A DNA stretch of 64,000 bases from Alphaproteobacteria bacterium (lineage in GTDB: Bacteria > Pseudomonadota > Alphaproteobacteria > CASFRQ01 > SAAU01): positions 58,245 to 122,244 of the forward strand of contig SAAU01000001.1 in NCBI GenBank assembly GCA_009929265.1. The letters are read 5' to 3'. A program made the translations under genes and the position numbers. The notes under the pieces were generated by a model. That model made no database searches. It saw nothing but the letters and a program-made list of their open reading frames with translations, and was not told the DNA's origin. Below are positions 34,869 to 53,520 of this stretch, piece after piece. The stretch's first letter is position 1. Each line of letters starts with the position of its first letter.

Positions 34869-36203
34869 ATGTTTAAAGAAAGGAAGAACGTGTCAATTAA
34901 ATTAGAAATTCCTGTTCTGTTTTCTCCTCTTTTAAAAGAAAAAAAACGCTATAAGCTTTATTATGGAGGGCGGGCAGGGGGAAAAAGTTATGCTTTTGCC
35001 GAAAGCATCCTCCTTAAAGGGCGAATGGAAAAGCTTTTTATTGTCTGTGTACGTGAAATTCAAGAGAGTATTAAAGAATCTGTTTATAAGCTGCTTTCCG
35101 ATAGAATTGAAAAATTAGGCCTCTCAGATTACAAAATTTTTGAAAGAAAAATCGAAAATAAGCTAACAGGAACGAAAATTATCTTTAAGGGATTAAGAGA
35201 TCAGGATGCCTCAAAGATAAAGTCCTTAGAAGGGGCGGATATTTGCTGGATTGAAGAAGGGCAATCTATTACAAAGAAAAGCTGGAATATTTTAGATCCA
35301 ACCATTCGAAAGGAAGGCTCCGAAATCTGGATTTCTATGAATAGAGAAAATGAAAACGATGCTCTTTGGATGATTTTAGGCAAACATCCCGATAAAAGGA
35401 CGTTGGTTCAAAAAGTTAATTTTATGGATAATCCCTTCTGTCCCGAAGAAATTAAATTTCAGGCCAAAAAATGCCTCAAAGATAGACCAGAAGAATATCC
35501 ACATATTTGGCTGGGAGAGCCTAAATCTCAAGCCGATAAGACGTTAATTTCATCTGGATTGATCTTAAAAGCTTTTCAAACGAAAGGAATTCTTTCCAAA
35601 AGTCCACTTGTGATTGGAGTCGATATTGCCAGATTTGGATCAGATAAAAGTGCTTTTGTTTACAGAAAAGGCCGGTCGTGTTTTAAGTATGAGCTTTTGT
35701 CCTCTCAAGATACAGTGGATATTGCCAATCGATTAACAGCTTTAATCTATGAGGTGCATCCCCATAAGATTTTCTTAGATTTGGGAAATTCCGGGGCAGG
35801 GGTCTACGATATCCTAAATGATAGAGGGTTTTCCGAGATTGTTGTTGGGATAAATTTTGGTGCTAAAGCCATTCAAAAGGATAGATATGTCAATAAACGT
35901 GCCGAAATGTGGGACGGTATTCGATTATGGCTTTCGGGAAAATTGCCCGTTGAGCTTTTAGAACATGAAGGCGTGCTTTCTGATTTGATTTCGGTTCAAA
36001 AAAAGTATGATAGCTATGGGCGATTACAGCTTGAAAGCAAGGATGAACTTAAGAAGAGGTTAGGGCATTCTCCTGATATTGGGGATGCTTTAGCTTTGAC
36101 CTTTGCAGAGCCTGTTTTCGAAAAAACACCGCCAAAGCTTTACAAATCTGGTGTTTCTTTTGAAGATCTTTTTCAAGAAGAAAAGCTCGATTTATCCTGG
36201 TGA
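34869..36203 (+). CDS. phage terminase large subunit (PBSX-like family)
   Basis: 444 aa. The Walker A-like ATPase motif reads YYGGRAGGKSYAFAE. A C-terminal nuclease-like half contains acidic residues (VIGVDIARFGSDKSAF). Confidence 0.75.
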   Translation: MFKERKNVSIKLEIPVLFSPLLKEKKRYKLYYGGRAGGKSYAFAESILLKGRMEKLFIVCVREIQESIKESVYKLLSDRIEKLGLSDYKIFERKIENKLTGTKIIFKGLRDQDASKIKSLEGADICWIEEGQSITKKSWNILDPTIRKEGSEIWISMNRENENDALWMILGKHPDKRTLVQKVNFMDNPFCPEEIKFQAKKCLKDRPEEYPHIWLGEPKSQADKTLISSGLILKAFQTKGILSKSPLVIGVDIARFGSDKSAFVYRKGRSCFKYELLSSQDTVDIANRLTALIYEVHPHKIFLDLGNSGAGVYDILNDRGFSEIVVGINFGAKAIQKDRYVNKRAEMWDGIRLWLSGKLPVELLEHEGVLSDLISVQKKYDSYGRLQLESKDELKKRLGHSPDIGDALALTFAEPVFEKTPPKLYKSGVSFEDLFQEEKLDLSW

Positions 36204-36346
36204 GCGTCTAAAAAGAGTAATAAAAATTCTTATTTTAAATACTAGTTGTATTTGTTTTTTGAATAGATTACACTAAAAACGCGTAAGCTTGTTGTTGTCA
36301 AGACGTCTTAATTTTTTAAGGCGTCTTTTTTTATTGGGAGTTTTAA

Positions 36347-36598
36347 ATGTTAAATGCCGTTTCGGATCGGATTTTCGTTAGGTTAAAAGAGGCGCCTAAA
36401 AAAAGTTCTCTTATTCTAACTGATTCTCTAAAAGGGATTTCAAATCAAGGAATTGTAGAAAGTGTAGGGCCTCTTGTTTATTCTGTTAAAAAAGGACAAG
36501 AGGTTCTTTTTCATTGCTTTGATGAGCTGCCAACCCCTGAAAAAGGAGTGGTTGTTATTCGAGAATCAAGCATTTTAGGAATTTATGAAAATGAGTAA
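36347..36598 (+). CDS. GroES-like 10-kDa co-chaperonin-fold protein (phage-encoded?)
   Basis: 83 aa. The N-terminus reads DRIFVRLKEAPKKSSLIL and the C-terminus reads VVIRESSILGIYE. These run parallel to GroES DRVIVKR...GGIVL and MSESDILAIVE. The 3' end overlaps the next ORF. Confidence 0.35.
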   Translation: MLNAVSDRIFVRLKEAPKKSSLILTDSLKGISNQGIVESVGPLVYSVKKGQEVLFHCFDELPTPEKGVVVIRESSILGIYENE

Positions 36599-38444
36599 AT
36601 TATCAAAAAATACATCACTTTCTTTTTGGCAAAAACGAGTTTTGGATGCCGAAAAGAAATATTATGATTACCACAATCTTGTCGATAAAACGCGAAAATT
36701 TTATAAGGATAGTGAATCAACGTTAGGAAAATCAGGACATTACAATATTTTTTGGTCCTCTGTTGAAACATTAAAGCCCTTTCTTTACTTTAAGTGTCCC
36801 GAAATTCATATCAAACGCTTAAATAAAGAGGCTTCTAAAGGCGAAAAATATGCTTGTAAAATTCTTGAAAAAGCTTTGAAATGGAGTGTTTCTCAAGCCG
36901 ATTTCGATAGTGTTTTGAAATATGCAAGAAATGATTTTCTTATCTCTGGCATGGGGCTTCTTTGGGAAAGATATCAAGGTGAATTTACAAAAATTGACGG
37001 CGAAGATATTAAAGTTTCCGAAAATGTCTTGTCGCAATATGTGGATCCGTCTTGCTTTATTGCCGATTGTGATAATGTTGGAATTTGGGAGGATGTCACT
37101 TGGGTGGCTCGACGCGTTTATATGTCTTTAAGGGAGATTGAAAAAAGTTTTGGAAAAGAAAGTTTGGAAAGCTTACAAATCAATCTAAAAGAAGATGAAA
37201 AAGACTTTAAATCCTATGTCGTTTACGAAGTTTGGGATAAAGTTACCAAAAAAGTCTATTGGTTTGAAAAGAATGGCACAAAATTCTTCAAGGTTTTAGA
37301 GGATCCTTTGCATTTGAAGGACTTTTTCCCGTGTCCAAAGCCCTTGTTTGCGACCCTAACGAATGATAGCATTATTCCTATTCCTGATTATATTTTGATT
37401 AAAGAACTCTTAGATGAGTTAAATGGGGTTAATTACCGAATGAGGATGATTACGCAGGCGTTTAAAGTCTCTGGAGCCTACGATGGATCTTTCCCCGATT
37501 TACAAAATATTTTGGAAAAAGAAAATGTATTGGTGGCCTTAAAAGACTTTATAAAACTTAAGGAAAACGGCGGAATTAAAGGGGTTATCGACTTTATTCC
37601 TTTGGAACAATATGTCGCAGCCCTATCAGAGCTTGCTGAACGCAGGAAGGATATTATGATGCAAATTTATAATATCACAGGAATTTCTGATATTATGAGA
37701 GGGGCTTCTAACCCACAAGAAACTGCCACTGCCGTTGTTCGAAAAACAAACTTTGGGAACCTAAGAAACCAAGACCGGCAAAATGATATGCAACGCTTTA
37801 TTGCGGATCTTTACCGTCTAAAGGCCGAGATGATTGCAGAGCTTTTTTCAAAGGATTTATTGCTTTCATTTCTTTCTAAAGAAGAACGACAAGATGAGGA
37901 GGCCTCAAAAGAAGCTCTTCGTATTTTACGGGAAGAAAAAATCCGCCAAATGAGCTTTCTAATTGGAACAGATGGCTTGTTTAACCAGGAAGAAGAGCTT
38001 AAAAAGACATCAGATGTGCTTTCTTCGTTAAATGGAATCGTTCAAAATGCGCTTCAAAATGTATCTGTGCAGCCTCTCTTGTTGCTTTTTTATAAGGAAA
38101 TGGTGGATGTGGTTGCGCAATACTTGCCCAAAGCAAGATCCCTTGAGAGTGTGATTGAATCGACGTTTGATAAGATTTCAAAAGAGCTTTCCTCAAAAGA
38201 AAATCCAGGGCCTAATCTTGGATTTTTACTTGAGCAAGAAAAACTTAAAAACACCTTTATGATTGAAAAAGAAAAGCTTGAAATTAAAAGAAAAGAGCTT
38301 CTCTTAAAGGAAAATGAGTTTAAATCAAAGCGAGATCTCACTCAAAAAGAAATGGCCTTGCAAGCACACTTTAAAACAGAAGAGTTAAAAGAAGATAAGA
38401 AGGTTGATAGCAATATTTCAACAGGGTTTGTGAAAGATTTTTAA
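36585..38444 (+). CDS. putative phage portal protein with C-terminal coiled-coil
   Basis: 619 aa. It sits immediately after the terminase and has a long C-terminal helical, Lys/Glu-rich region. I recognised no diagnostic motif, so the call rests on position and size. Confidence 0.3.
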   Translation: MKMSKLSKNTSLSFWQKRVLDAEKKYYDYHNLVDKTRKFYKDSESTLGKSGHYNIFWSSVETLKPFLYFKCPEIHIKRLNKEASKGEKYACKILEKALKWSVSQADFDSVLKYARNDFLISGMGLLWERYQGEFTKIDGEDIKVSENVLSQYVDPSCFIADCDNVGIWEDVTWVARRVYMSLREIEKSFGKESLESLQINLKEDEKDFKSYVVYEVWDKVTKKVYWFEKNGTKFFKVLEDPLHLKDFFPCPKPLFATLTNDSIIPIPDYILIKELLDELNGVNYRMRMITQAFKVSGAYDGSFPDLQNILEKENVLVALKDFIKLKENGGIKGVIDFIPLEQYVAALSELAERRKDIMMQIYNITGISDIMRGASNPQETATAVVRKTNFGNLRNQDRQNDMQRFIADLYRLKAEMIAELFSKDLLLSFLSKEERQDEEASKEALRILREEKIRQMSFLIGTDGLFNQEEELKKTSDVLSSLNGIVQNALQNVSVQPLLLLFYKEMVDVVAQYLPKARSLESVIESTFDKISKELSSKENPGPNLGFLLEQEKLKNTFMIEKEKLEIKRKELLLKENEFKSKRDLTQKEMALQAHFKTEELKEDKKVDSNISTGFVKDF

Positions 38445-38470
38445 CCCTTAATACAAGAAAAAGGTGAGGT

Positions 38471-38689
38471 ATGGTAAAAAGAAAAACGCCTCCAAAAGAT
38501 ATGAAAAAAATCTGGTTAGAGGTTTTTGATAAAATGGGTGGAATTGAAGGATTGCTTTCTTGGGCAAATGAAAATCAAAATGAATTTTATAAAATTTGCA
38601 CAAAGCTTTTTTCAATTGAAATAAAAGATAAAGATGAAAAGCCAAATCAGGTTCTTGTTAAATTTTTGGAAGATAAGAAGTTAAATTAA
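38471..38689 (+). CDS. hypothetical phage-module protein (72 aa)
   Basis: The ORF is co-directional and tightly packed within the phage-derived block. Confidence 0.2.
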   Translation: MVKRKTPPKDMKKIWLEVFDKMGGIEGLLSWANENQNEFYKICTKLFSIEIKDKDEKPNQVLVKFLEDKKLN

Positions 38690-38757
38690 GTTATTTTATT
38701 AACAAGCTATAAAAGAAGGTTAAATTTATTTTAGCCTTCTTTTTTTATGGAGGAATT

Positions 38758-38985
38758 ATGGCCTTTATTAACAGCCTATTTCAGACAGATTTTGAGTTGC
38801 CCAATGGTGAAAAAGTCTCTTCTTTAAAAGAAGCAGAAGAAAAAATGAACCAGCTTGGGATAACTTTATCAAGCAATTATTCAGAGGATTATTACAAGAA
38901 AAAACGTCTGAGTAATACGAAAAAAGAGAAGGAAGATCTCTTCAATCTCTTTATTTTAAACTACAAAAGGAGTATTTGGTTATGA
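38758..38985 (+). CDS. hypothetical phage-module protein (75 aa)
   Basis: The ORF is co-directional within the phage block. Confidence 0.2.
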   Translation: MAFINSLFQTDFELPNGEKVSSLKEAEEKMNQLGITLSSNYSEDYYKKKRLSNTKKEKEDLFNLFILNYKRSIWL

Positions 38986-39084
38986 CAACTAAAACAAGAG
39001 AAGAATTAGAAAAACTTTTTTCTTCTTTGCCGAAAACTATAAAAGAAGAAAAACATAAAGAGGGGGAGAAATCCTCAAGTCATT

Positions 39085-39519
39085 TTGGAGAAATTAGCTT
39101 CCCTTTATCAGGTTTCATTTCCATCAAAGCCCCCTCTTCAAAAAGGGGAAAATAAGGATAAACCCCTTCTTCAGAAGGCTTTATCTTTACTAAAATCCTT
39201 TGATGACGCGGTTGATGAAGCGGGGACAAAAAAGCACCCCTTCTTTAATGACGTTTCTTTAGAAATGGCTTCCCTTTTGAAAAATAAGCTCGTCTCCTCT
39301 TTGGAAGAGGCTTATGAAAAAGCCGTTTGGCTTAACCCAAAAATTAGAAATTCTTTAATCGAAGAAAAAACGCTTCAAACAATAAAGAAAAAAGTCGAAG
39401 AATCCGAAAAGGCCAAGGAAGCCTCCTTTTCGGTTAAGGGAAAAATGACTGGACAATCAGATCTTTCAAAGCTTTCAACGAGAGATCTTTTGGAATTTCA
39501 ATTCCGGAATTTAGACTAA
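39085..39519 (+). CDS. hypothetical helical phage-module protein (possible scaffold)
   Basis: 144 aa, alpha-helical and Lys/Glu-rich. An overlapping ORF at 38983-39156 in another frame may mean a frameshifted single gene. Confidence 0.2.
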   Translation: MEKLASLYQVSFPSKPPLQKGENKDKPLLQKALSLLKSFDDAVDEAGTKKHPFFNDVSLEMASLLKNKLVSSLEEAYEKAVWLNPKIRNSLIEEKTLQTIKKKVEESEKAKEASFSVKGKMTGQSDLSKLSTRDLLEFQFRNLD

Positions 39520-39546
39520 ATTTTAACTTAAAAAAAGGAAAACAAA

Positions 39547-39795
39547 ATGAGTAATTCAAATTATAATGATATTTTTACGACAACATTAGAAAGCAGAACA
39601 GGAAAATTGGCTGATAATGTTTCCGATAGCAACGCTCTTCTTTCTAGATTGAGAGAAAAGAAGAATATGGAGAATATCCAGAAACTACCCTTCCAGAAGA
39701 TGGCACTTGGTCCAATTATGTTTCAACAGGTTCTTCTGGAAGTGGGACTGTTTTGGCGTTGCGCTTTAAAAAAAATAATCGAGAAACACGTATGA
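39547..39795 (+). CDS. hypothetical phage-module protein (82 aa)
   Basis: The ORF is co-directional within the phage block. Confidence 0.2.
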   Translation: MSNSNYNDIFTTTLESRTGKLADNVSDSNALLSRLREKKNMENIQKLPFQKMALGPIMFQQVLLEVGLFWRCALKKIIEKHV

Positions 39796-39840
39796 AAAAC
39801 ATTGCGTTAAACTACTTTATTAAAGTAAAGGAGGAAGAAA

Positions 39841-40191
39841 ATGTCGCATAAAATTACCCCTGATGGGATTTCTATTACGCAAGGAGATTCTCTATATCTT
39901 CCTATTACTTTTAATGGGATGGATATTACGAATGCCACCTTAAATATGCAGGTGAGCTCTCAGGATTTGAAGACCCTTTTCATTGATAAGAAAGTCTCAA
40001 CACATATCGATGCTGCAAACGGGAAAACGGCTCTTAACTTAATGCCGTCAGATATAAATATTCCCGTTGGCGACTATGTGACAGATATGGAACTTTGCCT
40101 TTTAGATGGTCAAATCTTGACCTTTTACCCTGAAAGAACAGAAAAACAAGCCTTTTTTAGAGTCCTTGCCCAAGTGACAAAGGAGGAATAA
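39841..40191 (+). CDS. hypothetical phage structural protein (beta-rich, 116 aa)
   Basis: AGGAGG-like RBS (AAGGAGGAAGAAA) sits before the ATG. Predicted beta-strand-rich composition. Confidence 0.25.
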   Translation: MSHKITPDGISITQGDSLYLPITFNGMDITNATLNMQVSSQDLKTLFIDKKVSTHIDAANGKTALNLMPSDINIPVGDYVTDMELCLLDGQILTFYPERTEKQAFFRVLAQVTKEE

Positions 40192-41112
40192 ATGTCTGAA
40201 ATGAATTTATTTTTTGATGAAACAACGGGATTAAGCTTGGACATCAAAGAAGAAGCCTTAGACGTCTCAATAAATGAGGCAGAATTAACTGTATATCCAG
40301 AAGGCCTTAGCTTTATTCATAATGGAGAAGATGAAATAAAGGCCTTTGTTGAAAAGGTTTCAAAACCCGAGCTCAATACTTTTGTTTTAGAAGAAAAAAA
40401 GCCTGAATTAACAGCGTTTACTCAAGAAAAATTAACTGCGTTAGGCACTCAATATCAAACCTATAACACTCAATTAAATCAGCAAATAGATGAGAATAAG
40501 TCCGAAATGGAAGCCCTTTATAGCGCAACAAATACGCTAAAAGAAGAGGCCGCTTTACAAAAAGAGAAAGCCTTTCTTTGGGCGACAAAAATGGATGGAG
40601 AGGTTGAGGAAGGCCAAGGGTATAGCTCAAAATACTATGCATCGCTTTCCGATGAAAAAGAAGACAAGTCAAACAAAATTGCCCTTTTTCATGAAACGCC
40701 AGATGATACGCATTATCCTTCCGAAAAGCTGGTTTATGACGCTTTAGCCAATAAAATAAATTTGGAGGCGTCAAATCTATCTGATTTAGGTAAGAAAAAT
40801 TTGTCAGAATGGTCTCTTCCTGGGGACAGTTTTATAAATGTGACGCCAATTGCCTCCGGAGGAACTTATACAGCACCAAAAAATGGCTATTTTTCTTTTT
40901 TAGCAACAGCTCTTGATTCAACGGCCAGTATGATTTGCTTTAATGATGAGAGGCGGTTTTATCAATCGGTTTTTTATTGCAATGGATCGTCCCTTTTCCT
41001 CGGGCTAACAATTCCAATTCGGCAAGGTCAAACCATAACCTTTAGTTTTAAGAGTATCGAAAATCTGAATGTTTCATTCATCTATACAAAGGGAGAAGAG
41101 CTATGTTTATAG
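40192..41112 (+). CDS. hypothetical phage structural protein (306 aa; capsid or receptor-binding candidate)
   Basis: An acidic N-terminal half is followed by a beta-rich C-terminal region. It is translationally coupled to the upstream ORF (stop-start TAAATG). Confidence 0.25.
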   Translation: MSEMNLFFDETTGLSLDIKEEALDVSINEAELTVYPEGLSFIHNGEDEIKAFVEKVSKPELNTFVLEEKKPELTAFTQEKLTALGTQYQTYNTQLNQQIDENKSEMEALYSATNTLKEEAALQKEKAFLWATKMDGEVEEGQGYSSKYYASLSDEKEDKSNKIALFHETPDDTHYPSEKLVYDALANKINLEASNLSDLGKKNLSEWSLPGDSFINVTPIASGGTYTAPKNGYFSFLATALDSTASMICFNDERRFYQSVFYCNGSSLFLGLTIPIRQGQTITFSFKSIENLNVSFIYTKGEELCL

Positions 41113-41465
41113 GCTATCAAAATGGGAAAATTGTAGCTCAAGCTTTAACACAAGAAATTCTTGAATCCAAGCTTTGCGTTTCATTTGATGAAATTGAAGA
41201 GACAAGTCAAAATGTGATTGAAAAAGAAGGAAAACTTTATCTTGAAAATGAAATACCTTTAACGACAAAAGAAGAAATTGAAGAAAAAAGAAAATATCTT
41301 TATCAAATAAAAGTCGACTGTTTAACAGCCGAAATTTCAAGATTAAGAGACGAAATTCAAACTTTAGAAATTCAAGAGAAAATAGCAGATTTAATTTCAA
41401 AAAGGAATGAAATTGTTGATGAAATAAAGCTTCAAAATCCTTACCCAGATGAAGGAGAAAGCTAA
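41103..41465 (+). CDS. hypothetical coiled-coil protein (120 aa)
   Basis: Heptad-like E/K/I-rich sequence. It overlaps its neighbours by a few nt. Confidence 0.2.
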   Translation: MFIGYQNGKIVAQALTQEILESKLCVSFDEIEETSQNVIEKEGKLYLENEIPLTTKEEIEEKRKYLYQIKVDCLTAEISRLRDEIQTLEIQEKIADLISKRNEIVDEIKLQNPYPDEGES

Positions 41466-41728
41466 TGGCCACAAAATCAGAAAATGCGCTTTTAGCTCGA
41501 ATTGATGAGCGAACTTTAGAAATTCAAAAAAAGCTAGATAAACATATCCTTTTGATGGATTCGCTTTCTATAAAGGTGAATGAGCACGAACTTATTTTAT
41601 TTGGAAAAAAAGGAAATGATGGGCTGATTTCAAAAGTTGAATATCATGACAAAATTTTACTTAAAGCCATTGCTATTGGAGGGTTTTTACTTGTTTCTTT
41701 TGAATTTTTGAAAGGGGTTTTATTATGA
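41465..41728 (+). CDS. holin-like small membrane protein (C-terminal TM)
   Basis: 87 aa with a single C-terminal TM segment (AIAIGGFLLVSFEFL). It overlaps the endolysin start by 4 nt, which is the classic position for a holin or antiholin. Confidence 0.3.
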   Translation: MATKSENALLARIDERTLEIQKKLDKHILLMDSLSIKVNEHELILFGKKGNDGLISKVEYHDKILLKAIAIGGFLLVSFEFLKGVLL

Positions 41729-42078
41729 ATTTTTTTACAAAAAAAGAGCTTTCTTGCCCTTGTTGTGATTCCTATTTTTTCAAAGAAGAAACTTTAGAAA
41801 TGCTAGATGAAGCCCGAAAAAGGGCAGGGATTGCCTTTATTATCTCAAGCGCTTGTCGGTGCGAAAAACATAATAAAGAGGTGGGCGGAAGCCCGTTATC
41901 GGCGCATAAAACAGGGGAGGCTGTGGATCTTATTTTTCAAAATTCAAACGAGGCTTTTCTCATTTTGGAAAGCCTTATTTTTGTTGGATTTAGGCGGATA
42001 GGAATCAATTTCAAAAAGGGATTTATTCACGTGGATTCTTCAAAAACACTTCCCCAAGAGGTGTTATTTCACTATTAA
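41725..42078 (+). CDS. endolysin, peptidase M15A-type (L-alanyl-D-glutamate / D-Ala-D-Ala peptidase fold)
   Basis: Zn-ligand pattern: SACRCEKHNKEVGGSPLSAHKTGEAVDL (H-x6-D) and a later FIHVDS His. The protein is 117 aa. Confidence 0.7.
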   Translation: MNFFTKKELSCPCCDSYFFKEETLEMLDEARKRAGIAFIISSACRCEKHNKEVGGSPLSAHKTGEAVDLIFQNSNEAFLILESLIFVGFRRIGINFKKGFIHVDSSKTLPQEVLFHY

Positions 42079-42586: not shown

Positions 42587-42779
42587 AGAAAAAAATGCTG
42601 TTTTAATAAGAGAAACCCTAAAGATATTTTTTTATCTTAATGTTTTTTAATAACTCTTTGAATTCATTTTCAAAAAAATGTTACACTTTTTTTAAAAAGA
42701 TGCCTTTTTTAAGTTGATTATTTCGAAAAAATATTTATCCTTCTTGTTATTGTATCTTAAAACTTTCAAAGGAGGCATT

Positions 42780-43259
42780 ATGACCGATGAAGCTGCGTTA
42801 GAACAAACAAGAAAGGCCATTCAAAAGTGGAAAAAGAAAAGAGGTTCCCTTATTATGGCTTTGCATGAAATTCAAGGAATTTATGGCTATGTTCCTTGGG
42901 ATCATGCAAAAGTTGTAGCCGAAGAAATGGGGGTGGCTTTGGCCCGTATTTACGAAGTTTTAACCTTTTATAATTTCTTTAAGCTTGAATCTCCGGGAAA
43001 ATATATCATTTCTGTTTGTGATGGAACAGCGTGTCATATTAAAGGGGGCGCTTCGGTTATTGATGCTTTTGCAAAACATTTAAATATCAATCCAGGGGAA
43101 ACAACGCCTGACCGCCTTTTTCACATGCAAATTGTGCGGTGTTTAGGCTGTTGTGGATTGGCCCCTGTTGTGGTTGTAAATGGGAAAACATATGGAAAGG
43201 TCTCTCCTGCAGACGTTCCAAGTATTATTGATGAATGGAAAAAGAAGGAGGCCCTCTAA
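42780..43259 (+). CDS. hydC: [FeFe]-hydrogenase NuoE-like subunit (thioredoxin-like [2Fe-2S]; HydC/HndA-type)
   Basis: The NuoE family Cys pattern reads CDGTACHIKG...CLGCCGLAPV. The ATG at 42780 follows AAAGGAGG. The TAA stop overlaps the next ATG as TAATG. Confidence 0.8.
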   Translation: MTDEAALEQTRKAIQKWKKKRGSLIMALHEIQGIYGYVPWDHAKVVAEEMGVALARIYEVLTFYNFFKLESPGKYIISVCDGTACHIKGGASVIDAFAKHLNINPGETTPDRLFHMQIVRCLGCCGLAPVVVVNGKTYGKVSPADVPSIIDEWKKKEAL

Positions 43260-45070
43260 TGGATGAACTTACTCCAGAAATGAAAGAAAAGTTAAAGAAA
43301 CTCTACGCCACACAACGAGAAAACCTTGTTAAGATGAAGGAAGAGTTTTTGGTAAAAAAAGACTCCTACATTGCCTCTATTTACACCTGTAATAGCACAG
43401 GATGTCACTCTGGCGGGGCAGAAAATGTAATTGATGCCTTTAAGGAATCTTTGGAAATTTACGGTCTTCAAGATAAAGTGCGGATGGTGTCAACGGGATG
43501 TATGGGGTTGTGTGCACACGGACCTTTGGCGCGTGTTGAAATTAAAGGGCAAAAGCCTTTTCTTTATAAAGCCGTTGATGGCATGCTTGCTAGATTGATT
43601 GTAGCCGAGCATCTTCTTCCTGCTTTGAAAGCTTTAAAAGAGGGGAAAGCTGAAAACTTTGAAGTTAATGCTTTCTTAAAACAAAGAGAGCTTTCATTAG
43701 ATTTACCTTTCTTTACAAAACAAAAGAAAGTTGTCTTGAAAAATTTAGGGCACTCTGATCCAGAAGATTTTGGCGAATACCTAGCAACGGGTGGGTATCA
43801 AGCCTTTATTAAAGCTCTTGATACCATGACTCCAAAAGAAGTGCGCGATGTTATCCGTGAAAGCGGCCTTCGTGGACGTGGGGGTGGGGGATTTCCTACC
43901 GCCAAAAAGTGGGATTTACTTGCTGCTGCAACAGGAGATGAGAAGTTTGTCATCTGTAATGGCGATGAAGGGGATCCTGGCGCCTATATGGATGCGTGTA
44001 TCTTAGGGGGCGGCGCACATAGCGTTTTAGAAGGCATGATGATTGAGGCCTATGCCACAGGGGCAACACATGGTTGGTTCTATGTTCGGGCGGAATATCC
44101 TTTGGCTATTGAACGGGTTGAACAAGCCTTAAAACAAGCCAAAAAATATGGCCTTTTAGGAAAAAATATTTTAGGAACAGATTTCAGCTTTATGGCCGAG
44201 CTTCGTTATGGCGCAGGAGCTTTTGTCTGCGGTGAAGAAACAGCTTTAATGGAATCTTTGGAAGGTAAACGAGGCACCCCTCATCCACGTCCACCATACC
44301 CTACAGAAAAAGGACTTTTCGGGAAACCTTCGGCTATCAACAATGTTGAAACTTTGGCCAATGTCCCTGTTATTATTAGGGAAGGGGCAAAATTCTTTAA
44401 CTCTGTTGGAACAGAAACCAGTAAAGGAACCAAGGTTTTTGCCTTAACGGGGAAAGTTAAACACAGTGGATTGGTTGAAGTTCCTATGGGGATGAGCGTC
44501 TCTGAGATTGTTAATGATATTGGAGGGGGCACAAGCTCTGGAAAACCGTTTAAGGCGGTTCAAACAGGGGGCCCTTCTGGAGGGGTTATTCCTGCCAATA
44601 AGCTTGATATGCCTATTTGCTATGAAGAGCTTAAGAAAATCGGCTCTATGATGGGATCTGGCGGAATGATTGTCATGGATCAAGATGACAGTATGGTTGA
44701 AATTGCCAAATTCTATTTATCCTTTACGGTTGATGAATCTTGCGGAAAGTGTGCGCCTTGTCGAATTGGCGGCTATCAAATGCTTGAGCTAATGAAGAAA
44801 ATTGCAAGAGGAGACGGGAAAGAAGATGATATTCAAGAGCTGATTGAAATCGGAAGTGTGATGAAGAAAGCTTCTCTTTGCGCTTTAGGTCAAACAGCAC
44901 CAAACCCTGTTTTATCGACTTTAAGATTTTTTAGAGAGGAATATGAAGCTCTCCTTAAAAAAGATGACGATGAAGAAGAGGGCTGTCAAGCTGCTCTTCC
45001 CAAAAAAACAGATAAAGAAGAAAGCAAAGAAAAGCCAGAATGTGCAACGTGTTCCGGATGTGGGAGATAG
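43259..45070 (+). CDS. hydB: [FeFe]-hydrogenase NuoF-like NAD(P)H/FMN subunit with N-terminal [2Fe-2S] domain (HydB/HndC-type)
   Basis: An N-terminal 4-Cys thioredoxin-like module is present. The FMN/NADH site reads GRGGGGFPTAKKW. The NuoF 4Fe-4S motif reads ESCGKCAPCRIGG and the C-terminal end reads CATCSGCGR. GAAGGAGG sits 7 nt before the ATG at 43259. Confidence 0.85.
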   Translation: MDELTPEMKEKLKKLYATQRENLVKMKEEFLVKKDSYIASIYTCNSTGCHSGGAENVIDAFKESLEIYGLQDKVRMVSTGCMGLCAHGPLARVEIKGQKPFLYKAVDGMLARLIVAEHLLPALKALKEGKAENFEVNAFLKQRELSLDLPFFTKQKKVVLKNLGHSDPEDFGEYLATGGYQAFIKALDTMTPKEVRDVIRESGLRGRGGGGFPTAKKWDLLAAATGDEKFVICNGDEGDPGAYMDACILGGGAHSVLEGMMIEAYATGATHGWFYVRAEYPLAIERVEQALKQAKKYGLLGKNILGTDFSFMAELRYGAGAFVCGEETALMESLEGKRGTPHPRPPYPTEKGLFGKPSAINNVETLANVPVIIREGAKFFNSVGTETSKGTKVFALTGKVKHSGLVEVPMGMSVSEIVNDIGGGTSSGKPFKAVQTGGPSGGVIPANKLDMPICYEELKKIGSMMGSGGMIVMDQDDSMVEIAKFYLSFTVDESCGKCAPCRIGGYQMLELMKKIARGDGKEDDIQELIEIGSVMKKASLCALGQTAPNPVLSTLRFFREEYEALLKKDDDEEEGCQAALPKKTDKEESKEKPECATCSGCGR

Positions 45071-45075
45071 GAAAT

Positions 45076-46836
45076 ATGACAAAAATGATTAAGCTAAAAA
45101 TTGACAATCTCGACGTTGAAGTCCCTGAAGGAACCTCCATTCTTGATGCGGCTAAAAAGGTCCAAGTTGAAATTCCAACTTTATGTTATCACCCCGATTT
45201 GGAGCCAACAGCAGCTTGTGGGCTTTGTATTGTAAAGGCCAATGGACGTATGCTTCGTTCTTGTTGCACCCCGGTAATGGAGGGAATGGAAGTCATTACG
45301 CGGGATCCTGAAATTGTAAATGAACGCAAAACTGTGCTGAAGCTTATTTTAAGTCGGCATCCCAATGAATGCTTGACCTGTCTTAAGAATGAAACATGTG
45401 AGTTGCGTCAAAAGGCGGCCGAATTTGGTTTCCGGCAAGATAATTTCAAGAAAATCTCTCTTTCGCACGAAGATGCACCTTTGGATTGTTCGACGCGCTC
45501 TATTGTCTTGGATCCAAGAAAGTGTATTTTATGTGGCCGATGTGTTCAAGTTTGCCAAAATGTTCAAAATGTTTGGGCTTTGTCCTTCTTGAATAGAGGG
45601 TTAAAAACAAGAATTGCTGTCGCAGGGAACTTAACTTTGGATGAATCTCCTTGTATTAAATGTGGTCAATGTGTGGCTCACTGTCCAACAGGGGCTTTGA
45701 CAGAGTATGATGATACAGGAATTGTCTGGCGGTCTTTAATGAATAAAGAAAAATATTGTGTGGCTCAAATTGCTCCAGCTGTTCGGGTTGCCATTGGGGA
45801 AGCCTTTGGGAAAGATCCAGGGGAAATCTCAACGAAAAAGCTTTATTCTGCCCTTCGTCGATTAGGCTTTGACGCCGTCTTCGACACCAACTTTGGCGCC
45901 GATGTGACAATTATGGAGGAAGGCTCCGAGTTCGTGGAACGTTTTGCTCATGGAAAAGGCTCTTTACCTTTGATTACGTCTTGCTGTCCAGCTTGGGTAG
46001 ATTATATGCAGAAATATTATCCTGATATGATTGAGCATTTTTCAACTTGCAAATCTCCGCATGAAATTGTGGGCGCTTTGACAAAGACCTATTATGCCGA
46101 AAAGAAAGGCCTAGATCCAAAGGATATTATGATGGTTTCTATTATGCCTTGCACGGCCAAAAAATATGAAATCAGACGCAATGAATCTATGTATGCAAGT
46201 GGATGTCAAGATGTTGACGTGTCTTTAACAACCAGAGAACTTGCCCGAATGTTAAAGCAAGCTGGAATCGTCTTTGATGAATTAAAAGATGAGGAAGCAG
46301 ATAGTCCTTTAGGGGAATACTCTGGCGCGGGAACAATCTTTGGATTTTCAGGCGGCGTGATGGAAGCAGCTTTAAGAACGGCCTATCGCTTGGTTGAGGG
46401 AAAAGAGCTTGATGACGTAGACATCACCCCATTAAGAGGCGTGGACGAAGGCATTAAAACAATGGAAATGCCTTTGGGCGGCAAAACTTTGAAAGTGGCC
46501 GTTGCTCAAGGAACTGGAAATGTTGGAAAGCTCCTTGACGAAGTGCGTGATGCCTTAAATAGAGGGGAAGAATCTCCTTACCAATTTATTGAAGTTATGG
46601 CTTGTCCTGGCGGATGTATTGGGGGCGGTGGACAACCCACTGGTGTCACGAATAAAGTTAGAAAAGAACGAACAAAAGGGCTTATTATGGACGATAAGAA
46701 GTCTTCTATTCGGAAATCTCACCTTAACCCTGACGTTCAAAAACTCTATGAGGAGTATTTAGATAAACCTTTAAGTGAAAAGGCGCATCACCTTCTTCAT
46801 ACGACATATAACGCGGTTCCTGTTTATAAAAAGTAA
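45076..46836 (+). CDS. hydA: [FeFe]-hydrogenase catalytic subunit
   Basis: The N-terminal plant-type [2Fe-2S] reads C..C.C...C. A His-ligated [4Fe-4S] reads HPNECLTCLKNETC. Two ferredoxin-type CxxCxxCxxxCP motifs follow. All three H-cluster signatures are present: L1 TSCCPAW, L2 MPCTAKKYE and L3 MACPGGCIGGGGQP. The ATG at 45076 follows GGAG. Confidence 0.9.
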   Translation: MTKMIKLKIDNLDVEVPEGTSILDAAKKVQVEIPTLCYHPDLEPTAACGLCIVKANGRMLRSCCTPVMEGMEVITRDPEIVNERKTVLKLILSRHPNECLTCLKNETCELRQKAAEFGFRQDNFKKISLSHEDAPLDCSTRSIVLDPRKCILCGRCVQVCQNVQNVWALSFLNRGLKTRIAVAGNLTLDESPCIKCGQCVAHCPTGALTEYDDTGIVWRSLMNKEKYCVAQIAPAVRVAIGEAFGKDPGEISTKKLYSALRRLGFDAVFDTNFGADVTIMEEGSEFVERFAHGKGSLPLITSCCPAWVDYMQKYYPDMIEHFSTCKSPHEIVGALTKTYYAEKKGLDPKDIMMVSIMPCTAKKYEIRRNESMYASGCQDVDVSLTTRELARMLKQAGIVFDELKDEEADSPLGEYSGAGTIFGFSGGVMEAALRTAYRLVEGKELDDVDITPLRGVDEGIKTMEMPLGGKTLKVAVAQGTGNVGKLLDEVRDALNRGEESPYQFIEVMACPGGCIGGGGQPTGVTNKVRKERTKGLIMDDKKSSIRKSHLNPDVQKLYEEYLDKPLSEKAHHLLHTTYNAVPVYKK

Positions 46837-46851
46837 ACAAACCGTAAAAAC

Positions 46852-46883
46852 AAAAGCCCTTCATTGATTTGAAGGGCTTTTTC
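46852..46883 (+). terminator. rho-independent terminator after hydA
   Basis: The hairpin is gcccttc attgatt tgaagggc, followed by a T5 run. Confidence 0.6.
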
Positions 46884-46890
46884 AATTTAA
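46852..46890. repeat. approximately 40-bp direct repeat, copy 1 (contains the terminator hairpin)
   Basis: Copy 1 reads aagcccttcattgatttgaagggctttttcaatttaag. It is nearly identical to copy 2 at 48641-48680 (aggcccttcattgatttgaagggcctttttaatttaag). Confidence 0.7.
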
Positions 46891-46954
46891 GAAAATACAT
46901 TGACAGGAAAACTAATAATTGATAAAAATCTATGAAATACACGAAAGGTTTTTT

Positions 46955-47719
46955 ATGAGATATTTTTTCTTAATTCTTTTTTTTCCTTCTCTTTTAATGG
47001 CAGCGGAGGATTCTGCGTGCGTTTTTCAACATATTGACAAATGTTATTCTTGTGATGAGTTAAAAGCAATTGGACTTTCTGTTTCTAAAGAAGAAAAAGA
47101 TTCAGATGCTTTAAAAAAATGCAAAAATAGAAATGTTTATATAAGTTGGATGATTCCCCATGTTTTCTCCGTTTTAAAAAAGTGTCCAAAAGAAATGCCT
47201 TTGTTAAATGGCATGGGCCTTTGTTTTTCCTGCGCTGAAAAAGAACCTGTTTATCAAAGTTTTAAAAAGGATTTCCCTTTTTCTGGAGAATATACCTGCC
47301 CAAATAGGGTTTTGATAAGAGAAAATTCTTTCTTTGCTTACTCATATATAAGCCAATGCCCAAAAGACAAACCTTTAGTGGGATATCACGGAGATTGCTA
47401 TAGCTGCGATACGCCTCTTTCCATTAACATTAGTGAAAATGAAGTTTTATGTCGCAGATTTTGCGATGGAAAGCGCTTTTTTAATGGAGGATACTGTATG
47501 TCTTGCTCCTTTGTTCCCCTTAACGAATATCCGAATAAAGATTTTTGTATTTCTTGCGGGGGATATTGGGATAAAACGCATTGCAGGGAAAGAAGGGAAG
47601 GGGATGACCTTCAATTCTGCCACAAAAATAGCGATTGCGCAAAAGATGAGATTTGTTTTTATAATAGATGCAAAGCCTTTACAGAAGAAGAAAAAAAATC
47701 CCTTTATGGAAAGTTTTAA
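46955..47719 (+). CDS. secreted Cys-rich repeat protein, paralogue A
   Basis: The signal peptide reads MRYFFLILFFPSLLMAA. At least 24 Cys lie in repeated CPK(D/E)xPL...CxSC units. A conserved C-terminal module runs CRRFCDGKRFFNGGYC...CISCGGYWDKTHC...CHKNSDCAKDEICFYNRCKAFTEEEKKSLYGKF. Confidence 0.5.
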   Translation: MRYFFLILFFPSLLMAAEDSACVFQHIDKCYSCDELKAIGLSVSKEEKDSDALKKCKNRNVYISWMIPHVFSVLKKCPKEMPLLNGMGLCFSCAEKEPVYQSFKKDFPFSGEYTCPNRVLIRENSFFAYSYISQCPKDKPLVGYHGDCYSCDTPLSINISENEVLCRRFCDGKRFFNGGYCMSCSFVPLNEYPNKDFCISCGGYWDKTHCRERREGDDLQFCHKNSDCAKDEICFYNRCKAFTEEEKKSLYGKF

Positions 47720-47722
47720 ATT

Positions 47723-48637
47723 ATGAAAAAAACACTTTTATTTGCTTGCGCTTTTTTAATCTTTTCTTCACCCCTTTTACAGGCCAAAGAAAAACCTAAA
47801 TGCGATTTTTATCGCTACGACGGGTGTCATTCATGTGAAGAATTACAATCTTTTATAATCACAAGAAATAATCCAGAAACAAATTTAGGAAAATGCAAAA
47901 ACAGATCTATTTCTTATACAGGGTATCGGGATTCTTTAGGGTATCTTTCAGAGTTAAAAACCTGTCCAAAAGGCTATATTAAAGATTTTTATAGAGATTG
48001 TGTAAAAAAAATAGACTTTATAAATAAGTATCCTGGGCCTAACACTATTGTAAATCAAGAAAAATGCCCAAAGGATAAACCTCTCTATTTAATCGAGGAA
48101 AAACGGTGTGAAAGCTGTGACTTTCCGGACCCTGTATTTCTTTCTTCAGAGGCTAATAACCATAAAGCAGGGGCTGAATATGTATGCAAAAATCGGGTAT
48201 TTTTTAGCTTTGGAGCAGCATGTCCTTATTCCTTTTTCAGTCAATGTCCAAAAGATAGCCCCCTTCTTGATGATAAATTAAATTGCTTTAGTTGTGAATA
48301 TGATGGCCCCATAGAAACACGTAATAACCCCTATTTTTGTCGTAAATTTTGCGATGGAAAGCGGTTCTTCAACGGCTTTAAGTGTTTAAAATGTTCAAAA
48401 GATATTAACTATATTCCAGATAAAGAAACTTGCGTTTCTTGCGGAGGATATTGGAACAAAACCTTTTGCCGGAAAAAAAAGGAAGGGGACGCCTCTCAAA
48501 TCTGTCATGAAGACAGCGATTGTGCAAAAGGAGAAGTTTGTCTTTACGATAGATGTATCCCCTTTACAGAAGAAGAAAAAAAGGGACTTTACGGCATTTT
48601 TCAATCAGACATAGATAAGTTAGAAGAAAATAGATAA
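47723..48637 (+). CDS. secreted Cys-rich repeat protein, paralogue B
   Basis: The signal peptide reads MKKTLLFACAFLIFSSPLLQA. It has the same CPKDxPL...CxSC repeats. The C-terminal module is almost colinear with paralogue A (CRKFCDGKRFFNGFKC...CVSCGGYWNKTFC...CHEDSDCAKGEVCLYDRCIPFTEEEKKGLYGIF). Confidence 0.5.
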   Translation: MKKTLLFACAFLIFSSPLLQAKEKPKCDFYRYDGCHSCEELQSFIITRNNPETNLGKCKNRSISYTGYRDSLGYLSELKTCPKGYIKDFYRDCVKKIDFINKYPGPNTIVNQEKCPKDKPLYLIEEKRCESCDFPDPVFLSSEANNHKAGAEYVCKNRVFFSFGAACPYSFFSQCPKDSPLLDDKLNCFSCEYDGPIETRNNPYFCRKFCDGKRFFNGFKCLKCSKDINYIPDKETCVSCGGYWNKTFCRKKKEGDASQICHEDSDCAKGEVCLYDRCIPFTEEEKKGLYGIFQSDIDKLEENR

Positions 48638-48640
48638 AAG

Positions 48641-48680
48641 AAAGGCCCTTCATTGATTTGAAGGGCCTTTTTAATTTAAG
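48641..48680. repeat. approximately 40-bp direct repeat, copy 2 (bidirectional terminator between the Cys-rich gene and secB)
   Basis: The hairpin ggcccttcattgatttgaagggcc is followed by a T5 run. It lies 3' of both the plus-strand Cys-rich gene and the minus-strand secB. Confidence 0.7.
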
Positions 48681-48687
48681 GTTTTTG

Positions 48688-49158
48688 TTAGTTTGCTTTT
48701 TCTGCCTTTTGCTTTTCGGCAATTCTTTGACGATAAATGGCCGAAAAATCAATCGGATTTATCATTAAAGGAGGAAATCCACCATCCCGCGTTGCATCTG
48801 AGATAATGTTGCGAACAGCTGGGAACATCAGGTGAGGAATTTCAACAAGCAAGAAAGGTTCGACTTGTTCGGCAGGCACTTTCAATGTGACCAAAGCCCC
48901 GTATTCCAACTCACAAAGAAAAATATCTTTCTTTGTTTCTTTGTCTTTAGCTTCCGCTTTTATGGAAAGGTTGACAGTGTAGAGGCTGTTTTCTTCATTG
49001 AATTTTTCCCCTTTTACATCCACGTTAATTGAAATTTCTGGAGGTTGCTTCATCGCAATCAAAGAATTTGGATTATTTGGCGCTTCAAAAGACAAATCCT
49101 TCACATATTGTGTGTTTATTTGAACAAAAGGAGCTTCCTTATTTTTTTCTTCTGTCAT
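48688..49158 (-). CDS. secB: protein-export chaperone SecB
   Basis: 156 aa. The N-terminus (FVQINTQYVKDLSFEAPNNP...) and overall pattern are typical of SecB. Confidence 0.85.
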   Translation of the reverse strand: MTEEKNKEAPFVQINTQYVKDLSFEAPNNPNSLIAMKQPPEISINVDVKGEKFNEENSLYTVNLSIKAEAKDKETKKDIFLCELEYGALVTLKVPAEQVEPFLLVEIPHLMFPAVRNIISDATRDGGFPPLMINPIDFSAIYRQRIAEKQKAEKAN

Positions 49159-50911: not shown

Positions 50912-51372
50912 TAGAAGATTTTGACTTGTGGGATAAGATTAAGAAATCAATACAACCTATTGATAAAAAAAGTTATATTAAAGAAGATGACTTCCAAAAC
51001 CCCCTTCAATCTTTTGCAAAAAAAATAGCTATCCATCGACATTTTCCAGAGGTTTTATCTTTTAAGCCCGAACGAAAAGAGCTTTCTTTTTCACTAGATC
51101 TTCATGGTAAAACATTGGATGAAGCCTTCTCTTTACTTTCCCATTTTATTGTGGAACATCGAAGACGGGGAACAGAGTTTGTCACAATTATCACTGGAAA
51201 AGGACTAAAGAATGAAGGACTTTTGAAAAAAAATGTTCCTTTATGGCTTGAAAATGAGAAAATAAAAAAGCATATTGTCTCTACGCGAAAAATATTGGAT
51301 TCAAGAGCACAATATGGCTCTTTTTTGGTTTATTTGAAACCGAAAGGTAAGAAAAAAGAATGTATGTATTAG
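50908..51372 (+). CDS. Smr-domain protein
   Basis: The Smr core reads [37 protein letters not shown]. The start overlaps the mltA stop (ATGA). Confidence 0.7.
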
Positions 51373-52706
51373 GGATAGAATCAAGCTGTGACGAAACTGC
51401 AGCAGCCATTGTTTCGGAAAAAAAGGACCTCCTTTCGCATGTCGTTTGGTCCCAGCAGGAACATTTGGCTTTTGGCGGCGTTGTTCCAGAGATTGCCGCA
51501 CGGGCTCATCTAGATAGAATCGATGAGATTGTTCAAGAAACTTTGGATAAGGCGCATCTTACTTTTGATGACTTATCCGCCATTTCTGTCGCCGCAGGCC
51601 CCGGTTTAATTGGGGGCGTCATTGTGGGGGTTATGACAGCAAAAAGCATTTGTGCTGCCAAAAATATCCCTTTTGTGGCCGTTAATCACTTAGAAGGACA
51701 TGCTTTAACGGCAAGGCTAACGAGTGACGTTGAATTTCCATACCTTCTCTTATTGGTTTCAGGAGGGCATTGTCAGCTTCTTGTCGTAGAGGACGTTGGA
51801 AAATACAAAATGCTCGGCACGACGATTGACGATTCGTCAGGAGAAGCGTTTGACAAAGTCTCAAAAATGCTTGGTTTGGGCTATCCTGGAGGACCTAAAA
51901 TCGAAAAAGAGGCCCAAAAAGGCAATCCCAAGCGATTCCGTTTTCCTTCTCCTATGAAGGGCAGGGAAGGGTTTGATTTTTCTTTTTCAGGCCTAAAAAC
52001 AGCCGTTCGTCACCAAATTGAGCTTTTAGGAGACGAAATGACAGAACAAGATATTGCCGATATTTCGGCCTCTTTTCAAAAAGCGGTTTTGGGAAGTTTA
52101 CTTGACAGAGTAAAAAAAGCCATAACGCTTTATAAAGAAAAATATAATGGAAAACACTTGGTTGTTGCAGGTGGGGTGGCCTCAAATCTTGCTTTAAGGG
52201 AAAGTTTAACCTTACTTGCAAAAGAAAACAATTTACAATTTAATGTAGCTCCTGTAAAATTATGCACGGATAACGGGGCTATGATTGCGTGGGCTGGTTT
52301 GGAACGTTTCCGTAAAGGCTATACCAATTCGCTTGACTTCAAAGCACGCCCGAGATGGCCTTTAGAATCACTGAAAAAAGGAGAATACCTTATGAAAATT
52401 ATTAAAGACTCTGAATTTAAAAATACTGTTTTGGAAAATTCAAAACCTGTTGTTGTTGACTTTTTCGCAGAATGGTGCGGACCTTGTCGTCAAATGCTAC
52501 CTATTTTGGAAGAAATTTCAAAGGAAATGGGCGATAAAATTGATATTGTGAAGATGAATATTGATGAAGCTCCAGAAACACCAAATACTTATCAAGTTCA
52601 AAATATTCCAACAATGATTCTTATTAAAGATGGAAAAGAAATTGATAGAAAAGTCGGATCTATGCCAAAACATGTTTTTGAAGAATGGGTTAATTCTCAT
52701 CTTTAG
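51360..52706 (+). CDS. tsaD: tRNA N6-threonylcarbamoyladenosine synthase TsaD fused in frame to thioredoxin
   Basis: Residues 1 to about 340 are Kae1/TsaD ([14 protein letters not shown] and the HLEGH family core, ending RPRWPLESL). No stop follows. The frame continues through AAAAAAGGAGAATACCTT-ATG into a complete thioredoxin with the WCGPC active site. Confidence 0.8.
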
Positions 52707-52794: not shown

Positions 52795-53208
52795 CTATTT
52801 TCGAATAAACATAGCGTAAAAAGGCTTACTTGCAAAAAGGACAAACAAAATTGCATGGTATTCCCAATGAATAGCAGCTAAGCTTGGATAAATCTTTACA
52901 AGTAAAAACGAAAAGAATGTCACAGAAATAAGGGTTAGAACCTGACATTCTGGCGTCCAAACCTTTAGAGTATTTTGTATTTTCTCAAAAACACTTTCGC
53001 CTTTTATTGAAAGAATTTTCATCCATATCGGTGAGGCGGCAAGAAGCGCTGTAATAAGGTAAACAGCCCAATTGAGGCTTAAAATCTCTGGATAAAATAT
53101 GGCAATTAAAAATCCCATAAAAACATAAGCCATTTCAATAAAGCTCATATTCAAAATGGTCATTTCACTTCTTAATTTATCTTGAAGAAAAGTATATGTT
53201 GTCATCAT
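52795..53208 (-). CDS. hypothetical small integral membrane protein
   Basis: About 138 aa with 4 predicted TM helices. I trimmed the start to the ATG at 53208, which has AAAGGGGGA 4 nt upstream. The ORF-track N-terminus (to 53385) runs through the tRNA gene and is an artefact. Confidence 0.4.
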   Translation of the reverse strand: MMTTYTFLQDKLRSEMTILNMSFIEMAYVFMGFLIAIFYPEILSLNWAVYLITALLAASPIWMKILSIKGESVFEKIQNTLKVWTPECQVLTLISVTFFSFLLVKIYPSLAAIHWEYHAILFVLFASKPFYAMFIRK

Positions 53209-53307
53209 AAATCCCCCTTTTATATGTGATTGACACATGAAGTTTACAGATAAAAAACTTATAAAATCAAGCTTTTTATCAAAAAAAATAAAAATAAAGG
53301 GAATACT

Positions 53308-53383
53308 TGGCGACCCTAGCGGGAATCGAACCCGCGTTGTTGCCGTGAGAGGGCAATGTCCTAGGCCTCTAGACGATAGGGTC
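53308..53383 (-). tRNA. tRNA-Glu (anticodon CUC), CCA encoded
   Basis: I folded it by hand. The acceptor stem is GACCCTA/TAGGGTC. The D-arm is typical of Glu (TCGTCTAGAGGCCTAGGACA). The anticodon stem TTGCC/GGCAA carries the loop CT-CTC-AC. The T-arm is GCGGG TTCGATT CCCGC, ending in the discriminator and CCA. Confidence 0.8.
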
Positions 53384-53520
53384 ATCTAAAACTTTTCCCT
53401 GTATAACAGCTATAACCTAAAAAAACAAGTTTTATTTTCATAAAAATTAAACTTTCTTTTTTGCTAAAAATATGTTTTTATCTTTTTTATAAAGATAAGC
53501 TAAAAATCAAAGGAAAAATC

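Follow-up and report, generated by a model that had tools for sequence, protein, structure and literature searches.

The stretch of 64,000 nucleotides analysed here (the window; contig SAAU01000001.1, from a member of the Alphaproteobacteria) carries, between the hydrogenase gene hydA and secB, two adjacent genes for cysteine-rich proteins, which we call p1 (46955-47719, forward strand; 254 amino acids, 22 cysteines, predicted signal peptide at residues 1-16) and p2 (47723-48637, forward strand; 304 amino acids, 26 cysteines, predicted signal peptide at residues 1-21). We hypothesize, with a confidence slightly above even (about 55%), that p1 and p2 are an exported, disulfide-stabilised pair of repeat proteins from an undescribed family with a binding or structural role outside the cytoplasm, that their adjacency to the hydrogenase genes is positional, and that the direct repeat flanking them is of local origin. 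A sequence-only reading of the same DNA had already given the pair its right coordinates and had recognised the signal peptides and the richness in cysteines (20 or more in each protein). The p1 sequence is a 100% match to a hypothetical protein from a metagenome-assembled genome (MAG) at NCBI, EOM53_00540 (P0002).

The two proteins are paralogues with 46% identity, and their pairwise alignment, which the sequence-only reading had proposed for defining the repeat, recovers a unit that begins with CPK and is followed in each case by CxSC and by C(P/K)NR or CDGKR. There are two such units in p1 and three in p2, and five CxxC motifs in either protein. The most similar portion is the C-terminal part, where DNA identity is 74% over 200 nt and 83% over 42 nt; both the reiterated units and the shared C-terminal module described earlier are thereby borne out. 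In p1 this module spans residues 166-254 (47450-47719, forward strand) with the pattern CRRFCDGKRFF..CxSC..CxSCGGYW..C, and ends with a four-cysteine mini-module, CHxxSDCAKxExCxYxRC, and the tail FTEEEKKxLYG; it is present too in the family members P0006, P0009 and P0038. In p2 the module spans residues 206-294 (48338-48604, forward strand) and has the highest confidence within the AlphaFold model discussed below, with a predicted local distance difference test score (pLDDT) of about 90. No further paralogue of the pair was found within the window.

Neither protein is an orphan, since both belong to a family of about 120 clusters. A family profile made from p1, p2 and a strain variant, searched exhaustively with HMMER against 1.84 billion cluster representatives, gave 124 matches at E ≤ 1e-3, of which 43 reached E ≤ 1e-10, and many proteins were hit in 5-13 separate stretches. 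The family was revealed because an exhaustive profile search was used, whereas word-indexed searches gave almost nothing (two matches for p2 among 5.8 billion proteins, namely the strain variant and the paralogue, and nine for the family alignment). A reciprocal profile (A3) found p1/p2 homologues in loci L001-L011 at E ≤ 1e-82. The canonical unit has about 50 residues and six cysteines, arranged as C1-PxDKPL-x5-C2xxC3-D-x8-10-C4xxxC5-PNR-x5-12-C6, and its consensus in the members reads CPxDKPLxDxxGxCxSCD, 8-10 residues, CxxxCPNR, 5-12 residues and a last C. The longest members reiterate this unit up to about 15 times, while shorter members of 220-310 amino acids have the full p1/p2 architecture (alignment A2, 24 sequences). 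The units of p1 and p2 themselves are degenerate, mostly in a four-cysteine form from which C4 and C6 are absent. One subfamily (P0006, P0009, P0038, P0041, P0087, P0103 and P0178) has an additional domain of about 100 residues C-terminal to the p1/p2-like module.

That no named family had been recognised in these proteins holds up against the databases. Neither p1 nor p2 had a Pfam match at E ≤ 1 or a match among PDB sequences at E ≤ 10, and among 46 members searched against Pfam no family was common to more than two. Weak Pfam matches among the 46 were to Xlink (C-type-lectin-like) in two and to LprI in two. EGF, furin-like, TNFR, LDLa and other Pfam cysteine-rich domains were considered and set aside, as none gave a Pfam gathering-score match or a significant fold match. 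Literature searches found nothing relevant, and all members named in their source are entered as 'MAG: hypothetical protein [Alphaproteobacteria bacterium]'. By these comparisons, p1 and p2 belong to an undescribed family that is known by name only in MAGs of uncultured Alphaproteobacteria.

The sole NCBIfam match was below threshold, to TIGR04201 (Myxo_Cys_RPT), a 22-residue cysteine-rich repeat of Myxococcota. It aligns with the last four-cysteine mini-module of p2, CHEDSDCAKGEVCLYDRC (residues 259-278), at 17.7 bits (E 0.0028), where the curated cut-off is 25 bits. However, the match has no counterpart in p1 and concerns only 20 of about 300 residues, in a single copy instead of an array, and the main CPxDKPL..CxSCD..CPNR units of the family are unrelated to TIGR04201. 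P0094, which is made of TIGR04201-type repeats, was found by the family profile (E 1.6e-5) through the mini-module segment only.

Signal peptides were assigned from a hydrophobic N-terminus with an A-x-A-like end. The N-terminus of p1 reads MRYFFLILFFPSLLMA|AED (LMA|A) and that of p2 MKKTLLFACAFLIFSSPLLQA|KEK (LQA|K), and both proteins are predicted to be exported by the Sec pathway. Across the family, an export signal is present in at least 93 of 122 representatives, of which 70 are hydrophobic and 23 prepilin-like, the latter of the types G|RSMVEMLGVLAIIGVLS and G|RSMVE followed by a hydrophobic stretch; those without an export signal are mostly truncated gene calls. p1 and p2 themselves were considered as type IV pilins or pseudopilins, for which the criterion was a G|(F/M)xxxE cleavage motif at the N-terminus with a hydrophobic helix behind it, and were rejected, as they start with MRYFFLILFF and MKKTLLFACAF and have no G-x4-E motif. 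The 23 pilin-like N-termini nevertheless give the family a likeness to type IV (minor) pilins with a C-terminal adhesin, such as PilS/PilV of the R64 thin pilus, from which p1 and p2 differ in their ordinary Sec signal peptides and in the lack of pilus genes near them. P0005 (L011, 6952-9464) is encoded immediately downstream of a type IVb pilin gene of the Bundlin/PilS kind, with a TraG/VirD4-like coupling protein close by, and its locus may be part of a conjugative element.

The distribution of cysteines within the units bears on how they are used. When 121 family proteins were split into units and the 197 units delimited by a following CP motif were scored, 178 had six cysteines, 13 had four, and only five had an odd number. 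C4 and C6 occurred together in 165 units, were jointly missing from 13 and were discordant in three, and in 15 further units C6 was replaced by an additional mid-unit cysteine. On the evidence of these counts, cysteines are gained, lost and relocated pairwise across the units of the family. Because the cysteines covary in pairs, and because C6 lies outside the CxxC and CxxxC motifs, disulfides are favoured over metal sites, and the cysteines of p1 and p2 most likely form disulfide bonds.

With an alignment of three sequences AlphaFold reached a pLDDT of only 37, and 46 family sequences were needed for a model of mature p2 with a pLDDT of 78 and a predicted template modelling score (pTM) of 0.62. 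The model is a series of short beta-hairpins and short helices, with the C-terminal module best defined. Foldseek found nothing at E < 1 when the model was compared with the PDB; the weak top rows, none of them significant, included Jagged EGF, megalin, R-spondin, Dkk4 and GITR. Against a viral library the best match, at E 0.023, was an EGF-like pithovirus protein. Judged from this model, the p2 chain as a whole is without a known fold, and the test for known folds that the sequence-only reading had suggested for the C-terminal module, run here on mature p2, returned no significant match, EGF-type modules included. The predicted chain does resemble the disulfide-rich repeats of eukaryotes (EGF-like, R-spondin furin-like, TNFR, LDL-receptor class A and Dickkopf N-terminal), which likewise consist of modules in tandem, each 40-55 residues long, with about six cysteines and short beta-hairpins, located outside the cytoplasm and forming rigid binding stalks, although the likeness is of a general kind only.

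The pair also changes quickly between strains. In the comparison of the window with strain L001, in which the pair lies at 444-2231, the ratio of nonsynonymous to synonymous substitution (dN/dS) is 0.42 for p1 and 0.42 for p2, against 0.02-0.11 for six neighbours (the C-terminal part of HydA, SecB, Tim44, MltA, Smr and TsaD), a difference with a Fisher p of 4e-9. The synonymous component of p1 and p2 is itself low (dS 0.04-0.05 vs 0.10-0.27 in the neighbours), with dN as high or higher; the low dS might reflect recent recombination or a sweep, or constraint on the repeat-encoding DNA. Unit number differs as well. At 47181-47193 (forward strand) p1 has a deletion junction where a 105-bp (35-residue) CPKG...C unit, present in L001 and retained in p2, is absent, and the edges of the deletion are a 10-bp direct repeat, TGTCCAAAAG, that codes for the CPK motif. 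Apart from the two cysteines in this absent unit, all cysteines are kept between the window and L001. Fast change on a fixed cysteine scaffold, together with a changing number of units, is typical of exposed proteins of binding or recognition.

Taken together, p1 and p2 would likely serve as rigid binding or structural elements in the periplasm or at the cell surface. Disulfides would lend rigidity to a succession of short extracytoplasmic beta-hairpins, and the role would parallel that of relatives in which such modules stand behind a pilin-like N-terminus or beside a pilin gene. A surface or interaction role, including the host interaction that the sequence-only reading had mentioned, is plausible. 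Several points weigh against this interpretation. The disulfides are deduced from sequence patterns, and the covariation statistic overstates the independence of the units, because these are related by descent. Once the signal peptide, with one of the 26 cysteines, is removed, p2 is left with an odd number of them (25), and the organism looks anaerobic. The dN/dS ratios come from about 41 substitutions in p1 and p2 in one strain pair, the binding or adhesion role is drawn by analogy, and the match of relatives to the curated pilin model is sub-threshold (13.7 vs 16.3 bits). Finally, a Sec signal peptide brings a protein only to the periplasm in a diderm cell.

A further-reaching version of the hypothesis, to which we give tentative credence at most, is that the CPxDKPL-CxSCD-CPNR module represents a novel extracellular fold, rich in disulfides and confined to uncultured anaerobic Alphaproteobacteria, used as a fast-evolving adhesin or recognition surface, either free or pilin-anchored, with a unit number that varies between strains.

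The two genes probably share a transcript, because p2 begins 3 nt past the p1 stop codon. A candidate promoter site, TTGACA-N17-TAAAAA, is at 46900-46929 (forward strand) with a TG at 46920-46921 (extended -10 type); it was assigned from 10 of 12 consensus matches and is unchanged in strain L001. On direct reading, GAAAGG sits 7 nt upstream of the p1 ATG. A promoter-like site in front and a terminator behind would make p1-p2 a single small transcription unit. Upstream of p1, hydA ends at 46836 and is preceded by genes for HydC (2Fe-2S thioredoxin-like) and HydB (Nuo51-type), as assigned by Pfam, which also finds the large-subunit and small-subunit domains of [FeFe] hydrogenase in HydA. Downstream, secB (48688-49158) lies on the opposite strand, convergent to p2, and is followed by a Tim44-like gene.

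The pair is flanked by a direct repeat of 45 nt (46847-46891 and 48636-48680), the copies of which are identical at 41 of 45 positions. Copy A (46847-46891, forward strand) begins 11 nt past the hydA stop codon and contains a terminator hairpin (stem-loop 46852-46881) with an A-tract on its 5' side and a T-tract and AATTTAAG on its 3' side; it is kept in strain L001. Copy B (48636-48680, assigned to neither strand) has a hairpin at 48641-48670 that is terminator-like on both strands, and it occupies the 50-nt spacer between the convergent p2 and secB. The hairpin predicted for each copy has 12 bp, 5-6 of them GC pairs, and a folding energy between -18 and -23 kcal/mol (z about -5); with a 6-nt loop and a T-run, both score as intrinsic terminators (defined as a GC-rich stem of ≥5 bp, a loop of 3-8 nt and a T-run within 2 nt). 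They rank as the strongest terminator-like sites in 10 kb, and the remaining sites there are unrelated in sequence. We infer that both copies act as terminators, in which case copy A would end hydCBA and copy B would end both p1-p2 and secB. Two of the four differences between the copies compensate each other at the foot of the stem, where copy A has A-T and copy B has G-C. In strains L001 and L009 this pair of copy B is an intermediate G-T, which speaks for selection on the hairpin itself. Just outside the repeat, between copy A and the promoter-like site of p1, L001 has about 20 extra bases (L001 361-385 vs window 46891-46899), and therefore the adjoining spacer also varies among strains.

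The 22-nt palindromic core of the repeat, GCCCTTCATTGATTTGAAGGGC, occurs exactly twice in the window when up to 3 mismatches are allowed (expected 0). It was found neither in 596 Gb of reference genomes nor in viral contigs, and its single occurrence in the JGI metagenomes is at the p2-secB junction of the third strain, L009; the second strain, L001, has both copies, and in L009 the secB-side copy was found. Because the core recurs nowhere else in the collections searched, the repeat is, so far as these searches reach, one terminator duplicated locally. The proposal that the terminators after hydA and before secB are copies of one another is therefore well founded, given their identity and their shared 12-bp hairpin core, and the same searches speak against a common genome-wide terminator motif, the outcome named beforehand as fatal to it. 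In its 12-bp stem, 6-nt loop and flanking A-tract and T-tract, the element resembles two-way intrinsic terminators between converging genes, but it is unusual in that a second copy, 91% identical and including 8 nt past the T-tract, closes the neighbouring operon. An integron attC site was rejected because the GTTRRRY/RYYYAAC boxes are absent, and a dispersed intergenic repeat, such as a repetitive extragenic palindrome (REP) or a miniature inverted-repeat transposable element (MITE), because two copies in the window, the part of this genome that the search covered, are not the many scattered ones expected. At 45 nt, the repeat exceeds the length of usual target duplications.

The comparison with related genomes places a boundary at this site. 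In the nearest relatives by SecB (67% and 57% identity), the backbone tsaD-smr-mltA-tim44/secB is kept, and synteny breaks exactly at the secB 3' end, beyond which truA-fmt-def or tsaE is found. Neither hydA nor family genes stand beside secB in these relatives, and a scan of genome contigs for SecB relatives gave none confirmed by tblastn. In the window, p1-p2 come next beyond secB, then hydCBA, and then a prophage remnant. The secB 3' side is thus a variable, rearrangement-prone boundary, although a duplicated terminator alone is not proof of mobility. The prophage remnant (34869-42078), directly upstream of hydCBA, includes a Terminase_3 large subunit, a P22-like portal, a phrog_1084 protein, an M15 endolysin-like peptidase and several orphan open reading frames (ORFs).

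The sequence-only reading took the repeat as a duplication or insertion footprint, and of these two the local duplication is supported, while the insertion footprint is neither supported nor contradicted. There is no empty site for comparison, since all three strains carry the pair at the hydA-secB site and the relatives, which are too remote to be informative here, lack hydA as well as the pair beside secB; the uninterrupted hydA-secB junction that had been suggested as a check was found in none of them. Three scenarios are possible: the pair was inserted beside the hydA terminator, the arrival of hydCBA led to a copy of the terminator, or template switching or gene conversion took place at the palindrome. 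A recent foreign origin of p1-p2 was ruled out, as the guanine-cytosine (GC) content of 0.345 and the GC content at third codon positions (GC3) of 0.26-0.28 are ordinary for the genome.

The order of events might also have been the reverse, with p1-p2 and their terminator first beside secB, and copy A arising either on the arrival of hydCBA upstream or through template switching or gene conversion at the palindrome. An insertion of the cysteine-rich pair could then not be read from the repeat. Copy A retains the A-tract of a two-way terminator though no gene converges on it, which suggests a source between converging genes, but the hydA-secB site also lies between converging genes, and so the A-tract cannot discriminate. 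The hyd genes (42714-46836), with a GC content of 0.40-0.43, lie above p1, p2, the backbone and the window average of 0.363, and they follow the prophage remnant. However, this may reflect amino-acid conservation, as their GC3 of 0.32-0.36 is ordinary. Likewise, the closest relatives have no hydA near secB, but the same relatives also have no cysteine-rich genes there. We therefore consider this course of events possible but doubtful. The GC content of hydCBA and its absence beside secB in the nearest relatives suggest that the hydrogenase genes, too, were acquired at the boundary as an accessory block.

Alternative to disulfides, the CxxC and CxxxC motifs might pair into a Cys4 zinc (or iron) site in the style of a zinc ribbon, in which case p1 and p2 would be periplasmic proteins that are stabilised by metal or buffer it, possibly for the benefit of the adjoining metalloenzyme operon. 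This idea draws on the five CxxC motifs of each protein, on weak Zn_ribbon_TFIIB matches in two family members (E 0.005-0.06), on the adjacency to an operon rich in iron-sulfur proteins, and on an anaerobic lifestyle, in which disulfide formation is less obvious. However, no zinc-finger family matched at threshold, C4 is lost and gained jointly with C6, which lies beyond the putative site, and the cysteine count is almost always even. Nor does the neighbourhood argue for it. No export signal was found in HydA, and the domain set of HydCBA is that of a cytoplasmic NADH-linked enzyme; because HydABC looks cytoplasmic, p1 and p2 would be in another compartment than the hydrogenase. No hydrogenase genes were found in the contexts of the homologues P0103, P0178, P0035 and P0005, and these four loci have no metal-handling partner either, except for a cation-efflux gene 2 kb away (L002/L003). 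Instead, the homologues of L002-L005 follow tgt-dciA and precede a heptosyltransferase gene, that of L010 is beside rluD-like and ligT-def-fmt-truA genes, and that of L011 is beside the pilin gene. Since the contexts of the homologues are unrelated and HydABC looks cytoplasmic, a link with the hydrogenase is unsupported, and the two seem to be neighbours by position alone. On these grounds, and in view of the disulfide-like pairing of the cysteines, the metal- or redox-related role that the sequence-only reading had considered next to the metalloenzyme operon is not supported, and we regard metal binding as unlikely.

Least probable of all is a mobile cassette, that is, a 1.8-kb unit inserted between hydA and secB with recombination sites at its ends, either of a non-autonomous IS200/IS605-type insertion sequence (subterminal direct hairpins) or as attL/attR of site-specific integration: the direct repeats do bracket exactly one self-contained unit of promoter, genes and terminator, synteny ends exactly at secB, and the adjoining 14 kb (prophage remnant and hyd operon) is accessory, but no further copy of the core was found in the window, reference genomes, viral contigs or JGI metagenomes (the same locus aside), no recombinase gene was identified among those ORFs of the window that were annotated, a part of the whole set, the hairpins are perfect and followed by T-runs like ordinary terminators, the composition of p1 and p2 is in the host range, and the three strains share the site. 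As no comparable flanking repeat was found at two other family loci and no other copy of the element is at hand, there is no positive evidence for such a cassette.

Two further features of the window lie in the neighbouring genes. At 52383-52385, within the ORF 51360-52706, the TAA stop codon that tsaD has in L001 reads TAC in the window, and therefore TsaD and the downstream thioredoxin form one in-frame ORF of 448 amino acids; the two are separate genes in L001 and in the relative L006, and the fusion could be real or a sequencing or assembly error. On the reverse strand, an ORF of 196 amino acids (52795-53385) with no Pfam match overlaps a tRNA-Glu(CTC) gene (53308-53383, reverse strand), and because of this overlap its upstream start is probably spurious.

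The novelty of p1 and p2 lies in the family itself, which is without a relative in sequence or fold, and not in the kind of protein. It is absent from Pfam, NCBIfam and the PDB, yet comprises about 120 sequence clusters in poorly known uncultured Alphaproteobacteria. If it is indeed a compact disulfide-rich scaffold, it should be amenable to structure determination, and if the further-reaching version of the hypothesis is true, its module would be an independently arisen bacterial counterpart of EGF- or TNFR-type stalks. Given the export signals, the pilin-like fusions, the fast evolution and the change in unit number, the family is a reasonable candidate for contact with surfaces, hosts, partners or phages.

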